Assembly (NCBI GenBank): GCA_021774385.1
Contig: JAJFJC010000002.1
Span: forward strand, 1 to 52,147
Source of the DNA: Alphaproteobacteria bacterium
Lineage (GTDB): Bacteria > Pseudomonadota > Alphaproteobacteria > UBA8366 > GCA-2717185
Direction of reading: 5' to 3'
Length of the DNA: 52,147 bases
Position numbers and translations under genes: made by a program
Shown here: in pieces, positions 1,282 to 25,037 of the stretch
Position numbering within the stretch: position 1 is the first letter of the stretch
Layout of the letters: every line of letters starts with the position of its first letter
Notes under the pieces: generated by a model
Databases searched by the model: none
The model's input: only the letters and a program-made list of their open reading frames with translations
Told to the model about the DNA's origin: nothing

Positions 1282-3486
1282 ATGCCTAATTCTTCCGGAC
1301 TTGCCGAGGCGTCACCCGCCTTTATCGCCGAATTGGAATCGCAGCCGGCGTTCGAGCGCCCGCTCACGGAGGGTGGGATTCGCTTTGAGCTGCACTCCGA
1401 TTATCAGCCGGCAGGCGATCAACCGCAGGCAATCGATGGGCTTTCCGAGGGCCTTGTCAACGGAGAGCGCGATCAGGTTCTGCTTGGCGTGACCGGATCC
1501 GGAAAAACCTTCACGGTCGCCAAGGTCATCGAGAACCTGCAGCGGCCAACCCTGGTGCTGGCGCCAAACAAGACGCTCGCCGCGCAGCTCTATGGCGAGA
1601 TGAAAGGGTTCTTCCCGGACAACGCGGTCGAATATTTCGTTTCCTATTACGACTATTATCAGCCCGAAGCCTACGTCCCGCGCACTGACACCTATGTCGA
1701 GAAGGAATCCTCGGTCAACGAACAGATCGACCGGATGCGGCATTCGGCGACGCGGGCGCTACTCGAACGGGACGACGTCGTCATCGTGGCGTCGGTGTCT
1801 TGCATCTATGGTATCGGCGCGGTGGAGACCTATTCGCGCATGACCGCCACGGTGAAGGCGGGCACCCAAATCGATACGCGCAAGCTGATGCAGCAACTGG
1901 TGGAATTGCAATACCGTCGCAACGACACCAGTTTTCAGCGCGGCGCCTTCCGGGTCCGGGGCGATACGATCGAAATTTTCCCCGCCCACTACGAAGACCG
2001 CGCCTGGCGTATCTCCATGTTTGGCGACGAGGTCGAGGCGATCCACGAATTCGACCCGCTGACCGGCGAGAAGATGACCTCGCTCGAATCGGTCCGCGTT
2101 TACGCCAACAGTCACTATGTCACGCCGCGCCCGACGCTGATTCAGGCGATCTCGGGCATCAAAGCCGAGCTCAAATCACACCTGAAGATGCTCAACGAGC
2201 ACGGCAAGTTGCTCGAAGCACAGCGTCTGGAGCAGCGCACGGTCTTCGACTTGGAAATGATCGAAGCCGCCGGCTCCTGTGCGGGTATCGAAAACTATTC
2301 GCGGTATCTTTCGGGCCGCAATGCGGGCGAGCCGCCGCCGACGCTGTTCGAGTATTTGCCGGACAATGCATTACTCATCGTCGATGAAAGCCACGTCACC
2401 GTACCGCAGCTCGGCGGCATGTATAAGGGCGACTTCGCGCGCAAATCGACTCTGGCAGAACACGGCTTTCGCCTCCCTTCCTGCATGGATAACCGGCCCC
2501 TCAAATTCGAGGAATGGGAGGCGATGCGGCCGCAGACAATTTATGTCTCTGCGACGCCGAGTCCCTGGGAACTGGAGCGGACCGGTGGCGTCTTCGTGGA
2601 GCAGGTCGTGCGGCCGACCGGGCTGATCGATCCCGTTTGCATCATCCGGCCAACCGAACATCAAGTCGACGACCTACTGGCCGAGTGTAAAAATTGCGTC
2701 GAGTTGGACCAGCGAGTTCTGGTGACGACACTGACAAAGCGCATGGCCGAGGATTTGACCGACTACATGGTCGAGGCCGGGCTGAAGGTCCGCTACATTC
2801 ATTCGGATGTGGAAACATTGGAGCGGATCGAAATTATTCGCGACCTACGGCTCGGCGTCTTCGACATTCTGGTCGGCATCAACCTGCTCCGCGAAGGACT
2901 CGATATTCCTGAATGCGCGCTAGTGGCGATCCTCGACGCGGACAAGGAAGGTTATTTGCGGTCGCGTACCTCGCTGGTACAGACGATCGGCCGCGCGGCG
3001 CGAAATATCGACGGCCGGGTTCTACTCTATGCCGACAGGATGACCGACTCGCTCGAATACGCCATCGGTGAGACCAACCGCCGGCGCGAACGCCAGCAGG
3101 CCTACAACGCGGCCAATGGCATCACGCCCGAATCGATCCGCAAGCAGATTTCCGACATACTCGAATCGGTGTACGAACGCGACCATGTCACCGTCGATAC
3201 TGGCGACGCAAAGCTGAAACATCTCGTCGGCATGGATCTTAAAACCTATATCAGCGCGGTCGAAGTACGCATGCGGGCCGCGGCAGCGGATCTTGAATTC
3301 GAGGAAGCCGCCGCATTGCGCGACGAGATCAAACGTGTCGAGGCGCATGATCTCGACATGCCCGTCGACACCGCACCGATTAATCCGAAAATCGCGGCCA
3401 GTATCCAATCGGTACCGAGCGGCATCCTGCCGAAAGGGCGCGGCAAGGGAAAACGCAAGCGGCGCGGCGCGCGCCGCGGTATCTAA
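1282..3486 (+). CDS. uvrB: Excinuclease ABC subunit B
   Basis: GDQP, Walker [22 protein letters not shown] beta-hairpin, [14 protein letters not shown] and a C-terminal UVR domain (FEEAAALRD). Confidence 0.98.
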
Positions 3487-3500
3487 TCAGGTTAACGGCA

Positions 3501-4265
3501 ATGGCTATTCCCCAAACCGTTCTCGTTACAGGTGCCGCAAGACGGATCGGCCGTGCCATTGCACATGACTTAGCGGCCTGGGGCTGGTCGGTCGTCGTCC
3601 ACTACAATCGGTCCGCGGAAGATGCGGAAACCGTCGTTGCCGAAATTCAATCCGCCGGCGGCGCTGCGGTTTCACTGCAGGCGGACTTGGCGCAGGAAGA
3701 CGAAACGCAGCGTTTGATCGCACAATCCATCGAACGGTTCGGACCGATCGGGTGCCTCGTCAACAATGCCTCACGCTTCGAGCGAGACGATATCGATACC
3801 ACAACGCGTGAAAGCTGGGACGCGCATATCGAGCCCAATCTACGGGCGCCCTTCGTTCTGTCGCAGGATATGGCGGCAGCCCTTCCCGAGGATCAGGAAG
3901 GCGTCATCGTTAATATACTCGATCAAAGGGTTTGGAACCTGACACCGCATTTTCTGTCCTACACGCTCAGCAAAACCGGCCTTTGGACCTTGACTCGCAC
4001 CTTGGCGCTAGCGCTGGCGCCGCGAATTCGCGTCAACGGCATCGGACCCGGACCGACGTTGCGCAATGTCCGTCAAACCGAAGCGCAATTCCGGCGCGAA
4101 CAAGCGTCGGTGCCATTGCGGCGTGGCGCATCCTCCGAAGAAGTCGCACGCGCCGTGCGATTCATAATCGAATCACCATCAATGACCGGACAAATGATTG
4201 CACTCGATGGCGGCCAGCATCTCGGTTGGGCGCAGCCGCTGTCCGACAACGAGATAGAGGAATAG
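3501..4265 (+). CDS. SDR oxidoreductase, pteridine reductase/FolM-like subgroup
   Basis: TGAARRIG cofactor motif, NNAS, catalytic YTLSK and TGQMIALDGG. Confidence 0.85.
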   Translation: MAIPQTVLVTGAARRIGRAIAHDLAAWGWSVVVHYNRSAEDAETVVAEIQSAGGAAVSLQADLAQEDETQRLIAQSIERFGPIGCLVNNASRFERDDIDTTTRESWDAHIEPNLRAPFVLSQDMAAALPEDQEGVIVNILDQRVWNLTPHFLSYTLSKTGLWTLTRTLALALAPRIRVNGIGPGPTLRNVRQTEAQFRREQASVPLRRGASSEEVARAVRFIIESPSMTGQMIALDGGQHLGWAQPLSDNEIEE

Positions 4266-4559
4266 TCCAAAATGTCATCGATATCGAACCCTCCATTCAA
4301 TACGCAGCGTCAACGAAACCTGCCAACTCCCTGAATGGAAAGGACTCTTTTCAGAAGCATTGGGCTTTGAGTTTTACACAGTTGAAATTTTTCCGATGGG
4401 CCAATAAGCCAACGCACCGGAATCGTTGAATTTTTACGTTTTGGTAACACTTCAATTCCTGTTAATTATTATATTTCAATGGCTTGCTGCCGTTGCCTGT
4501 TTTTTAGGCAAAAAGTACAAGGTCCTGCATTCGTTGATCCTTGAGCGGTGTACCCTCGT

Positions 4560-4594
4560 TTTTCAACAACCTTATCCACAGATGCCGTGGATAT
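4560..4594. promoter_or_regulatory. Cluster of three DnaA boxes upstream of uvrC
   Basis: TTTTCAACA (4560-4568, 1 mismatch), 3 bp, TTATCCACA (4572-4580, perfect), 5 bp, inverted CGTGGATAT (4586-4594, 2 mismatches). A further TTWTNCACA match (TTTTACACA) lies at 4372-4380. Confidence 0.7.
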
Positions 4595-4700
4595 CGTGGA
4601 AGGGTTCCCGATTGATATGAATCAGCGCAACTTTATTATGCTTTTACTGGCGGGATTTGAATTTTTAAGATAACGAGTTCGGCAAAGGTACCCAGTCGCG

Positions 4701-6620
4701 ATGGCGGAACGAGCACGAACCGGCGGCGAAGCCGTCCCAGGCAACCGTAATGCCCATCGCGGCCTGCAAACGGGTGCCGCCGTCATTCAATCCTATCTCA
4801 AGACCCTACCGATCGCCCCCGGCGTATACCGCATGCTCAATCAACGCGGTGATGTGCTTTACGTCGGGAAAGCACATCAGCTTCGCAAACGCGTCACGAC
4901 CTATGCCAGCCCGGCAAAACTGCCCATTCGCCTGCAACGCATGGTCGCCGAAACCCAATCGATGGAATTCGTAACAACCCATACCGAGGTCGAAGCCCTA
5001 CTTCTCGAATCGAATCTGATCAAAAAATTGCGGCCGCGGTACAACGTCCTGCTGCGCGATGACAAAACGTTCCCCCATATCCTAATTACCGGCGACGGTG
5101 AATTCGCCCAGCTGCTCAAACATCGAGGCGCCCAGAAACAGGATGGTCGTTATTTCGGCCCCTTCGCATCGGCGGGGGCGGTGAACCGCACGATCGCCGC
5201 GCTGCAGCGCGCCTTCTTACTTCGTAACTGTTCCGACAATATTTTCCGCAGCCGCACGCGGCCTTGCCTTCAATTTCACATCAAACGATGCAGCGCACCC
5301 TGTGTCGGCCGGATCAGCCAGGAAGATTACGCTGCCATGGTTGGCGAAGCGTACGAATTCCTAACCGGGCATAGCGGCAAGATCCAAGCACGACTGGCCC
5401 GGCGCATGGAAAAGGCCAGCAATGTGCTGGAGTTCGAGGTCGCGGCCCGCATACGTGACCGGATCCGCGCCCTAACCCAGGTGCAGGCCCATCAGGACAT
5501 CAATGTCGCGGGGCTGGACAACGCGGATATCATTGCTTTGTATCAGGAAGGCGGGCAATCCTGCGTTCAGGTATTTTTCTTCCGTGGCGGCCGCAATTAC
5601 GGCAATCGCGCCTATTTCCCAAGCCATGACCGTCACTTGGACGCCGAAAACATCCTGTCCGCCTTCGTGGGGCAGTTTTACGACAACAAACCGCCACCAC
5701 GTACGGTTTTGCTCAGCCATACCTTGCCCGAACGCGACCTCATTGCCGAAGCGCTGACCACCCGCGCCGGACACAAGGTCCAAGTGCTGAACCCGCAGCG
5801 CGGCGGTAAACGAAAACCGGTCGAGCATGCGATCACCAATGCGCGCGAAGCACTCGGGCGGCGGCTTGCGGAAAGCACGACACATCGGCGTGCGCTCGAC
5901 GCGCTTGGGTCCCGCTTGGAATTCGACGGGCCACCGAACCGAATTGAAGTTTATGACAACAGCCACATTCAAGGCACCAACGCCATCGGCGCCATGATCG
6001 TAAGCGGCCCGGAAGGGCTGATGAAAAATGCATACCGCAAGTTCAATATCAAAACCGTCGGCGGCGAGGGCGATGCGGAGGCTGGCGACGATTACGCCAT
6101 GATGCGCGAGGTTTTGACCCGGCGCTTTACCCGCGCGCTTAAGGAAGACCCCGACCGTTCGGAAGGTAACTGGCCCGATTTGGTGATCGTTGATGGCGGA
6201 CGCGGGCAACTTGGCATCGCCGAAGAAGTCTTTGCCGAACTTGGCATCGACGACGTCAACCTACTCGGCGTCGCCAAGGGGCCGGATCGCAATGCCGGGC
6301 GCGAACGGTTTTATCAACCTGGCGGCGTCGGATTTACGCTACCACCCCGCGACCCACTGCTCTATTTTATCCAGCGCCTGCGCGACGAAGCCCACCGCTT
6401 CGCCATTACGACGCACCGCGCCAAGCGGTCGCGGGAAATTTCCGCGTCACCGCTCGATGAAATCGAGGGTATTGGCGCGAAACGAAAAAAGGCGCTGCTG
6501 TTGCATTTCGGGTCCGCTCGAAACGTCGCCCGCGCCGGTCTTGCCGATTTGGAAGCCGTCAACGGCATTAGTAAGGCCGTGGCAGAGAAAATTTATGGTC
6601 ATTTCCACACCGATCAGTAG
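4701..6620 (+). CDS. uvrC: Excinuclease ABC subunit C
   Basis: GIY-YIG domain (PGVYRM..LYVGKA), Cys-rich region, RIEVYDNSH RNase H-like domain, DGGRGQ, RDEAHRFA and C-terminal HhH motifs. Confidence 0.98.
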   Translation: MAERARTGGEAVPGNRNAHRGLQTGAAVIQSYLKTLPIAPGVYRMLNQRGDVLYVGKAHQLRKRVTTYASPAKLPIRLQRMVAETQSMEFVTTHTEVEALLLESNLIKKLRPRYNVLLRDDKTFPHILITGDGEFAQLLKHRGAQKQDGRYFGPFASAGAVNRTIAALQRAFLLRNCSDNIFRSRTRPCLQFHIKRCSAPCVGRISQEDYAAMVGEAYEFLTGHSGKIQARLARRMEKASNVLEFEVAARIRDRIRALTQVQAHQDINVAGLDNADIIALYQEGGQSCVQVFFFRGGRNYGNRAYFPSHDRHLDAENILSAFVGQFYDNKPPPRTVLLSHTLPERDLIAEALTTRAGHKVQVLNPQRGGKRKPVEHAITNAREALGRRLAESTTHRRALDALGSRLEFDGPPNRIEVYDNSHIQGTNAIGAMIVSGPEGLMKNAYRKFNIKTVGGEGDAEAGDDYAMMREVLTRRFTRALKEDPDRSEGNWPDLVIVDGGRGQLGIAEEVFAELGIDDVNLLGVAKGPDRNAGRERFYQPGGVGFTLPPRDPLLYFIQRLRDEAHRFAITTHRAKRSREISASPLDEIEGIGAKRKKALLLHFGSARNVARAGLADLEAVNGISKAVAEKIYGHFHTDQ

Positions 6621-23273: not shown

Positions 23274-24113
23274 TTAACCTTTGGGAACCTCGATCGGCAT
23301 CTCGTCCCGATTTCCCCATTCGTTCCATGAACCAAGATAGTTTCGGACGCGCGGGTAATCGAGCAGGCGCATAGCCAAGTAGGCATGGGCGGATCGATAC
23401 CCTGTTTGACAAAGCGCGATGATTTCCTTGTCGGCGGAAATACCGTTTTCCGCGAATAACGTGCGCAATTCATTTCCCGGTTTCATCGTGCCATCGGGCC
23501 GCAAATGGTTCACCCATTCTAAATGTACGGAACCGGGAACAGTGCCACCCTTGGCCGCGCGGCGATCCTCGCCGGTCCATTCTAACTTTCCACGGGTATC
23601 CAGAATAACGCAGTCCAGCGCGTTGATTCCCGCGCGTACATCATGGTGCGTGGCGAGACGGCCGCGATCCATTTGATATTTAAATACCGATGCTGTCGGC
23701 ACGGTCGCCTCACGCGTAACAGATAACCCGGCGGCTTCCCAGCCCGAATACCCGCCATCGAGAACATGAACATCCTTATGCCCCAGATACTCCAAAAACC
23801 ACAAACCGCGCGCGGCGGTCATTCCGGTGATTTCACCGCAAAAAACAATCGTGTCATCGAATGCGACTCCGCGACGGGCCAACAGGAATGCCCACATCCG
23901 GGTGAAGGAAAGGAGCGGCGCGTCATCGGTATCGTCGCAGTTCAGGGCATAAATATCGAAATGCCGTGCACCGGGTATATGACCCATAGCAAATCGTTCA
24001 CCGGGGCGCACATCGATGATGCGCAATGACGGGTCGTTCAGCCGCGCTTGCAAATCTTCCCGTGTCCAGAGCAAATCTGGATTTTCGTACCCTGCGGTTT
24101 CCTTTGTCGACAT
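23274..24113 (-). CDS. Tandem-domain rhodanese/sulfurtransferase (SseA-like)
   Basis: GHIPGA, VLDGG, active loop CQTGYR and YLGSWNEW. The ATG at 24113 has an AAGGA RBS. Confidence 0.9.
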   Translation of the reverse strand: MSTKETAGYENPDLLWTREDLQARLNDPSLRIIDVRPGERFAMGHIPGARHFDIYALNCDDTDDAPLLSFTRMWAFLLARRGVAFDDTIVFCGEITGMTAARGLWFLEYLGHKDVHVLDGGYSGWEAAGLSVTREATVPTASVFKYQMDRGRLATHHDVRAGINALDCVILDTRGKLEWTGEDRRAAKGGTVPGSVHLEWVNHLRPDGTMKPGNELRTLFAENGISADKEIIALCQTGYRSAHAYLAMRLLDYPRVRNYLGSWNEWGNRDEMPIEVPKG

Positions 24114-24311
24114 CGGTCGCTTTCCTTTCGGATGGATTGATTTCTCGTTAGCCACGGCTCATGGGAACAGCGGCTACGCGCAAACCCGATTGAATGTTTA
24201 GCCGGTGTCGGCCCAGCGTCATTTCCCAGTAGATCAAGGACCGGGCACGCGAAAGTGATTTCTTATGCGGCGGCTCTCCTTGCATTTGGTAGGCAATAGA
24301 CGCATTTTTCC

Positions 24312-24818
24312 ATGGTCGCCATGATAAATTTTCTAAAAACCCTGATTCGTCCCGACCGCGAGGAAAGCGATCCCGAATGTGATGAAATCGCGCGGGCGGC
24401 AAATCTTCTCCAAATCGGTGAGTTTCAACTTCTCCAGCTTGCCTATGCCGAATGGTATGGTGAGGAGTTGCCTGAATCGTCGACCGATCACTTGTTTGCA
24501 GACTATATGCTCCGCAAGCAGGTACCGCATTGGGCACGACACTATGCGCGCCGGATCAATGATTGGGAAAAACGAGAACTTCTTGATCATAGCGATGCCG
24601 CGTACCATCGCTATGACCGCGGCTATAGTATGAAGGCACCCGGCGGTATTCGCCGTTTTTGTATTGCGACCGCCGTATTGGTTGTGTTTGTTGGAGGGAG
24701 CCTTTGGGTCAGCCATTTGGCCGTGGGCGGACGTTCGGCTTCGTTTCTGCCACCGTATTTTGACACCGATGAGTTAAAGCAAACCCGAAGACATGGGGAA
24801 GTCGGTCCAGGGTCGTAA
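24312..24818 (+). CDS. Hypothetical protein with one C-terminal TM helix
   Basis: Protein-like composition (GEFQLLQLAY..WYG, VPHWARHYAR) and one hydrophobic helix; fills the gap between real genes. Confidence 0.7.
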   Translation: MVAMINFLKTLIRPDREESDPECDEIARAANLLQIGEFQLLQLAYAEWYGEELPESSTDHLFADYMLRKQVPHWARHYARRINDWEKRELLDHSDAAYHRYDRGYSMKAPGGIRRFCIATAVLVVFVGGSLWVSHLAVGGRSASFLPPYFDTDELKQTRRHGEVGPGS

Positions 24819-24833
24819 CCAAGGGAAACCGCT

Positions 24834-25037
24834 ATGTTCGAGTTCGGGGGCGAATACGAACCGTTAATCAATATCATTTTTTTGATCGTAACGGCGGGCG
24901 TGGCATGGCACGGCATCCGATTCCGCGATGCCGAAGGCAACACCGATTTTGTCCGCCTGCTCTTTGGCTGCATTGCCGCGGTATTTTTCTTTATGGTGTT
25001 GTTGCAAGATGTCTTGGGCGTGGCATCATTTGGCTAA
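24834..25037 (+). CDS. Small two-TM membrane protein
   Basis: 67 aa with two hydrophobic helices and an AAGGGA RBS; starts 15 bp after the previous gene. Confidence 0.7.
   Translation: MFEFGGEYEPLINIIFLIVTAGVAWHGIRFRDAEGNTDFVRLLFGCIAAVFFFMVLLQDVLGVASFG

Follow-up and report, generated by a model that had tools for sequence, protein, structure and literature searches.

A conserved alphaproteobacterial DnaA-box module upstream of uvrC with a layout resembling that of Escherichia coli DARS2

How ADP-DnaA is recharged into ATP-DnaA is, to our knowledge, understood only in E. coli and its close relatives. Does an element with this role exist in Alphaproteobacteria, the class of Caulobacter, the rhizobia, Rickettsiales and Brucella? 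The question is raised by contig JAJFJC010000002.1 of an alphaproteobacterial draft genome (52,147 bp, analysed at full length and referred to here as the window), in which a group of DnaA boxes occupies the spacer between a short-chain dehydrogenase gene and the excision-repair gene uvrC. A preliminary description of the window had named three options, namely DnaA reactivation, DnaA titration and control of uvrC. Positions 4372-4594 were found to form one rigid, single-copy, non-coding module of about 225 bp that is conserved across the class. It is probably a replication-control element, and its predicted layout is closest to that of the E. coli DnaA-reactivating sequence DARS2.

The core of the module consists of three DnaA boxes:

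4560..4568, plus strand: DnaA box III, TTTTCAACA, one mismatch to TTWTNCACA, in tandem with box II across a 3-bp spacer
4572..4580, plus strand: DnaA box II, TTATCCACA, perfect consensus
4586..4594, minus strand: DnaA box I, ATATCCACG, opposed to box II across a 5-bp spacer

The plus strand of the core reads TTTTCAACA (4560-4568), ACC, TTATCCACA (4572-4580), GATGC and CGTGGATAT (4586-4594), and the minus strand ATATCCACG-5bp-TGTGGATAA-3bp-TGTTGAAAA. The perfect box TTATCCACA has a single copy in the window, which contains no other perfect box, and 17 copies in the 6.3-Mb genome. A relaxed triad pattern (up to three mismatches in box III, one in box II and two in box I) matched the whole genome only in this spacer, with a chance expectation of approximately 0.02 (a rough hand estimate, not computed by a program). 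Since box II is rare, the relaxed triad is unique in the genome and the triad is conserved in relatives, the core is not a chance arrangement. A search of the genome for the opposed pair alone at 5-bp spacing, with up to three mismatches, returned four matches compared to two for the control. The window copy was the best of them (two mismatches). The other three, with three mismatches each, stand alone, with no further boxes beside them, and were taken as chance, given the two control matches; a second DARS-like site was accordingly rejected.

Three further elements lie upstream of the core (positions are relative to the first base of box III):

4372..4380, plus strand: distal DnaA box TTTTACACA, full match to TTWTNCACA, at -188, oriented as boxes III and II
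4474..4486, plus strand: IHF-like site TTTCAATGGCTTG, one mismatch to WATCAANNNNTTR, at -86, with an A/T tract directly 5'
4494..4510, no strand assigned: dyad TGCCTGTTTTTTAGGCA, TGCC-N9-GGCA, at -66; class consensus TGCCYA-W5-TRGGCA

On re-reading, the strings and coordinates given in the preliminary description for the opposed pair with a third tandem box (4594-4560) were all correct, as were the extra consensus box exactly 200 bp (start to start) from the perfect box and the IHF-like site with its single mismatch and preceding A/T tract. The spacer (4266-4700, 435 bp) is as AT-rich and as poor in open reading frames (ORFs) as had been noted there, with 42.8% GC compared to 55.8% in the window and a single ORF of 64 amino acids.

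The conservation of these elements was assessed in 121 unique alphaproteobacterial modules. The loci were gathered by the triad pattern alone, and the distal box, IHF-like site and dyad, lying outside that pattern, therefore provide independent evidence. The distal box (at least 7 of 8 core positions) was found at -168 to -200 in 116 modules and at -185 to -191 in 100, with the core TT-T-CACA (logo TTgTgCACA), and shares the strand of boxes III and II. An IHF-type 13-mer, also on that strand and preceded by an A/T tract, was present at -85 to -88 with a score of at least 8/9 in 97 modules and was perfect in 44. The dyad, as TG-N13-CA, was located at -66 to -68 in 113 modules. Box geometry in relatives, on which the preliminary description had staked its proposal, is thus retained across the class, with triad, distal box and IHF-like site at fixed spacing.

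When the spacer was compared by BLAST with 41 relatives, the conserved part outside the genus comprised only query positions 295-333, that is, the triad. The boxes were kept at these loci while the 3-bp and 5-bp spacers differed, and the site always lay between a dehydrogenase gene and uvrC. A strict pattern (32 nucleotides, up to one mismatch) matched 39 of the 91 genomes sampled from the order, with a single copy in each, and 48 of 401 genomes of the class, with no control match in either set. A loose pattern (CANNNTTATCCACANNNNNNGTGGAT, up to one mismatch), applied to class genomes of at least 90% completeness with the reversed pattern as control, matched 201 of 401 genomes and 152 of 295 genera, almost always in single copy, and the control matched once; this tally takes in two genomes flagged unpublished (G329, G130). 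The strict pattern undercounts, since in two families scoring 1/26 and 0/14 a variant module was present upstream of uvrC in all five pattern-negative genomes examined. A scan of genome contigs in named records matched at least 120 stretches, of which the DNA of 80 was read. Labels among the matches listed included Azospirillum, Magnetospirillum, Inquilinus, Pelagibius, Tagaea, Dongia and Sneathiella, as well as Kordiimonas, Paracoccus, Cypionkella, Rhizobiaceae, Acetobacteraceae and Rickettsiales; cultured strains of Azospirillum, Inquilinus and Pelagibius and a Magnetospirillum genome are among these carriers. In a MAFFT alignment of 27 diverse modules (A2), four islands stood out from otherwise variable sequence (mean column identity 50%), and box II and the GTGGAT of box I were invariant.

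This pattern of islands of 9-17 bp in variable sequence is unlike that of coding DNA, and the 64-residue ORF (4426-4620), which matched no Pfam family, was rejected as a gene. An Rfam scan of 3500-5500 (E <= 1) matched no RNA family, and a known RNA was likewise rejected.

The dyad is more likely a protein site than a hairpin, because its paired positions do not covary: positions 5/13 were T-A in 44 modules, T-G in 34, C-A in 15 and C-G in 15, and positions 4/14 showed no covariation either. The hairpin reading was accordingly discarded. The Fis consensus GnnYAnnnnnTRnnC, as quoted by Kasho 2014 (PMC4245941), was matched by 95 of the 113 dyads in relatives, and the window's copy is one base off. 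None of the sigma-54 promoter, LexA, CtrA, RegA and NtrX sites fitted the dyad when compared informally, by eye, against their consensus sequences. A terminator-like hairpin of seven pairs (4477-4495) followed by a T-run to 4505 shares positions with the IHF-like site and with the dyad's left half; it is absent from the stacked sequences of relatives, is probably incidental and was rejected as a terminator.

Of the 121 unique modules, 25 (e.g., L032, L045, L051) have GANTC, the target of the CcrM methyltransferase, spanning the box II-box I junction; the site is absent from the window and its genus. Such a site could tie DnaA binding to methylation state.

The core was compared with the corresponding E. 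coli loci, read from the MG1655 sequence with box II written forward. The DARS1 core reads TAATACACA-TGG-TTATCCACA-GGAAT-AGTGGATAA, or TTATCCACT-ATTCC-TGTGGATAA-CCA-TGTGTATTA on the other strand, and the DARS2 core reads TTCTTCACA-ACT-CTATCCACA-GAAAA-GGTGAATAA. The window, DARS1 and DARS2 agree fully in box orientation and in spacer lengths of 3 and 5 bp. The alignment suggested in the preliminary description therefore gave the same geometry in all three, and the DARS1 orientation and 5/3-bp spacing given there were borne out by the MG1655 sequence. Opposed boxes I and II at 5 bp, with a full-consensus box II in DARS1, are also described in the consulted excerpt of Sugiyama 2019 (PMC6868365). 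A weak box in tandem with a strong one, 2-3 bp apart, is a generic feature of DnaA sites: the available part of a DnaA ChIP-seq study (PMC11317965) lists it for DARS1, DARS2, nrdA, polA, purH, datA and oriC. The opposed box I is for that reason the discriminating feature. The pair TTATCCACA-N5-TGTGGATAA (up to three mismatches) was found at three sites in MG1655, all inside DARS1 or DARS2, and the reversed control gave two. Like the DARS loci, the module has a consensus or near-consensus box II, expected to nucleate the complex, and occupies a non-coding chromosomal site apart from the candidate oriC, which lies on another contig. Its IHF-like site at -86 is a predicted counterpart of the DARS2 site at a defined distance, and ihfA and ihfB are present in the genome.

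The proteins expected at such an element were also examined. The genome's own DnaA (471 residues) is 43% identical to E. coli DnaA and keeps Leu290, Phe239, Lys243, Arg227 and Arg285. The domain IV residues Arg399, Pro406, Asp433, His434, Thr435 and His439, which make base contacts, are kept as well. Genes for IHF alpha and beta were detected above the NCBIfam cut-offs. HTH_8 domains were found only in five NtrC-size frames and one response regulator frame (REC plus HTH). Fis is restricted to relatives of E. coli (Kasho 2014, PMC4245941). The response regulator frame (C313:3-536, L082; about 177 residues, REC and C-terminal Fis-type HTH) runs off the contig end; no other small protein carrying an HTH of the Fis type was found in the genome. 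We take it to resemble the RegA/ActR type, whose published GC-rich target does not fit the dyad.

Taken together, the conserved layout makes binding of both DnaA and IHF at the module very likely, and nucleotide exchange there is plausible by analogy with E. coli. That the module is an IHF-assisted DnaA-reactivating element of the DARS2 type is the reading we favour, and we give it an even chance. In the proposed mechanism, DnaA would bind the perfect box II first and recruit two protomers, the one on box III in head-to-tail and the one on the opposed box I in head-to-head arrangement. A sharp bend would be introduced by IHF sitting 74 bp upstream of box III. Because the IHF centre is at similar distances from the distal box (~104 bp) and from box II (~96 bp), DnaA on the distal box may fold back onto the core. 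The head-to-head ADP-DnaA pair would then lose ADP, as at E. coli DARS2, and apo-DnaA would leave and rebind ATP, so that initiation-competent DnaA is regenerated.

Several points weigh against this reading. DARS2 needs Fis and has essential Fis sites, whereas the HTH_8 matches in this 95%-complete genome included no small Fis homologue and the window's dyad departs from the Fis consensus. Gln208 of E. coli DnaA aligns with Tyr here, with Gln at the next position; the need for Gln208 (head-to-head contact) and for Leu290 at DARS has been shown for E. coli DnaA only. The accessory order is core-dyad-IHF in the module and core-IHF-Fis in DARS2. Five further pattern-negative genomes yielded one degenerate module, two loci without box I and two with nothing upstream of uvrC. 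The placement of the module just 5' of uvrC in one orientation (105 of 121) makes an effect on uvrC transcription likely too, and DnaA with IHF on bent DNA is also the recipe of datA, whose activity is the opposite. By its geometry the module would work like a DARS; membership of the DARS family is not established, since the Fis requirement has no counterpart here, Gln208 is not conserved and the defining activity is a prediction by analogy. A DARS is defined by ADP-DnaA oligomers that assemble on its core and give off ADP in vitro, and by initiation that is delayed on its deletion and stimulated by additional copies in vivo.

A datA-like role appears improbable to us; in it, boxes on either side of an IHF bend would gather ATP-DnaA and promote its hydrolysis, or simply titrate DnaA, and initiation would be restrained. 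DnaA boxes do flank the IHF-like site on both sides at ~100 bp in an arrangement similar to that of datA, the tandem pair of a weak and a perfect box 3 bp apart is shared with datA (PMC11317965, in the excerpt available), and the direction of a change in DnaA activity is not readable from sequence alone. However, datA places IHF between its essential boxes and lacks an opposed box 5 bp beyond the perfect one, and this opposed pair is confined to DARS loci in E. coli. The IHF site, moreover, lies on the CACA side of the tandem pair in datA and on the TT side in both the module and DARS2.

The module could instead be an operator of the uvrC(-pgsA) operon that depends on DnaA and IHF. Repression or activation would then link excision repair, and perhaps the synthesis of acidic phospholipids, to the replication cycle, and the module would have no part in the DnaA nucleotide cycle. 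We regard this as unlikely. In its favour, uvrC lies 3' of the module in the same orientation in 105 of 121 cases, and pgsA follows uvrC in the window. At approximately 15 loci, box I is less than 60 bp from the predicted uvrC start (start prediction is rough), so that the promoter has to share sequence with the module or be situated farther upstream. In the E. coli case, uvrB is listed as DnaA-repressed, with DARS1 in its upstream region, in the consulted part of PMC11317965. One promoter candidate follows directly after box I:

4612..4639, plus strand: sigma-70-like promoter match TTGATA-16-TATTAT, 10/12, from a consensus scan only; candidate uvrC promoter 3' of the triad

This match showed no conservation at a fixed distance in relatives, whose stacked sequences are unconserved downstream of box I. 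A TTGAY hexamer 17 bp 5' of the WATCAA in the IHF-like site, found in 40 of 121 modules, also resembles a promoter. The site was nevertheless rejected as a mere -10 hexamer, since the full 13-mer including TTR is present in 97 of 121.

An operator is expected to travel with its gene and to keep a fixed distance from the promoter, and neither was observed. Box I lies between -8 and 484 bp from the uvrC start (standard deviation 66), compared to 1-3 bp of variation for spacings inside the rigid module. Genes other than uvrC come after the module at eight loci of the class sample; in these places the module is complete, beside MepA, DUF2125 or regulators on the other strand. In five genomes with the module away from uvrC, the 600 bp upstream of uvrC held no triad and at most one weak box (5/5). 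The same architecture is shared by Burkholderiales loci between hemE and priA, and a simple operator needs no distal box, IHF site and dyad at fixed spacing over 225 bp. Since the architecture recurs beside unrelated genes and uvrC can do without it, the module behaves as an autonomous element rather than primarily as an operator of uvrC. Some secondary influence on uvrC is likely, as at uvrB in E. coli, given the approximately 15 loci with the module less than 60 bp from the predicted start. Of the three options in the preliminary description, pure uvrC control is therefore weakened, and between the two others the conserved DARS2-like layout favours reactivation over a datA-like function.

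A chromosomal or secondary origin is highly improbable: an AT-rich spacer with DnaA boxes and an IHF-like site would suit one, but only four boxes and no repeated AT-rich unwinding element were seen, hemE is on another contig (C254) with five near-consensus boxes just upstream, and in three complete relatives 0.68-0.94 Mb separate the module from hemE and dnaA. The gene hemE is the usual neighbour of oriC in Alphaproteobacteria. The five near-consensus DnaA boxes on C254 are situated in an AT-rich stretch (23683-23922, 44.8% GC) at the contig end just upstream of hemE (24050-25012), and this region is the likely oriC of the genome. In three of five complete relatives, hemE and the module are 16-19% of the genome length apart (genome sizes rounded; no conclusion drawn); in the other two, hemE and dnaA are far apart and the origin is not placeable.

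Similar modules were also found outside Alphaproteobacteria. Among the matches listed, 17 loci were other than the alphaproteobacterial uvrC type, most of them labelled Burkholderiales, and 13 of the 17 carry a TGC-N11-GCA dyad at -66 to -68. The Burkholderiales-group loci have a DARS-type triad, a distal box, often TTATCCCCA, at -175 to -188, perfect IHF sites at -98/-99 (minus strand) and further IHF sites at -30 and +52. Where flanks were read, the module lies between hemE-like and priA-like ORFs. The betaproteobacterial records include Comamonas, Roseateles, Oxalobacter and Burkholderiales (L085, L088, L093, L121, L125, L128, L145, L149, L150, L160 and others). Two loci labelled Alcanivorax (L111, L162), with no uvrC nearby, showed a second III-3-II-5-I arrangement approximately 165-170 bp upstream of the matched triad; these gammaproteobacterial loci seem to hold two DARS-type triads in tandem.

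More tentatively, Alpha- and Betaproteobacteria may share an ancient family of IHF-assisted DnaA-recharging modules composed of a distal box, an IHF site, a TGC-N11-GCA dyad and a DARS triad. A dyad-binding protein would take the role that Fis has at DARS2, DARS1 and DARS2 would be derived members, and GANTC in the spacer between boxes II and I could let fork passage switch the element once per cell cycle. In the literature searched, no DARS and no DnaA boxes upstream of uvrC were described for Alphaproteobacteria; Fujimitsu 2009, cited for DARS candidates in other species, may list such sites. From the comparison of the two classes, elements of the DARS type seem far older and more widely distributed than the literature on E. 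coli indicates. At least half of the sampled class genomes carry the module, which offers a precise single-copy target of ~225 bp and makes the question directly testable, and the conserved dyad points to a further protein partner.

The window is a complete contig (C2) of the draft genome (6.3 Mb, 558 contigs, 56.6% GC). Its gene order is uvrB (1282-3486), short-chain dehydrogenase (3501-4265), the 435-bp spacer, uvrC (4701-6620), pgsA, mobB and moeA. The gene for UvrB was identified by its UvrB domains (Pfam) and lies ~1 kb 5' of the module, and the two genes bordering the spacer are as follows:

3501..4265, plus strand: short-chain dehydrogenase gene, Pfam adh_short; usual 5' neighbour of the module
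4701..6620, plus strand: uvrC, 639 amino acids, Pfam UvrC_RNaseH_dom, GIY-YIG, UVR and HHH; usual gene 3' of the module

The row of uvrB, dehydrogenase and uvrC on one strand (window 1282-6620), with a conserved dehydrogenase between two excision-repair genes, is also seen elsewhere in the family and in several of the order's other families.

Among known systems, double-DnaA-box promoters (nrdA, polA, purH, dnaA of E. coli) have, like the module, two tandem boxes 2-3 bp apart in front of a DNA-metabolism gene; as listed in the part of PMC11317965 consulted, they show no opposed third box. The datA locus has the tandem weak-3bp-perfect pair, an IHF site (+77) and boxes beyond the bend (+174 and +186), as the module does. 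It differs in the missing opposed box and the side of the IHF site, and its known activity, DnaA-ATP hydrolysis, is opposite to that of DARS.

DARS1, in the bioD-uvrB spacer, agrees with the module in box orientation, 5/3-bp spacing and the perfect middle box. Each is upstream of a uvr gene, and the window also has uvrB ~1 kb upstream of the module. In DARS1, no IHF-like site (up to one mismatch) was found within -330 to +120, and a Fis-consensus site is at -243; the module, in contrast, has a conserved IHF-like site, a distal box and the dyad at -66. DARS1 is active in vitro without accessory proteins, according to the excerpt of PMC5742627 available. Neither DARS locus appears orthologous to the module, whose neighbours are the dehydrogenase gene and uvrC rather than bioD-uvrB or rppH-mutH; only the boxes are alike.

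DARS2, the IHF- and Fis-dependent locus in the rppH-mutH spacer, shows no sequence homology or common synteny with the module. Its box II has one mismatch, whereas that of the module is perfect; its Fis-consensus site is at -125, compared to -66 for the dyad; and its full boxes are at -185 and -304, the former oriented opposite to the module's distal box at -188. Both are non-coding, lie outside oriC and beside a repair gene, and have the same three-box core (III-3bp-II-5bp-opposed I). The IHF site of DARS2 (IBS1-2, two overlapping candidates at -87 to -59) and the predicted one of the module (-86 to -74) are on the same side of the core, that of box III. In layout, as predicted from these features, the module is closest to DARS2 and matches it better than datA.

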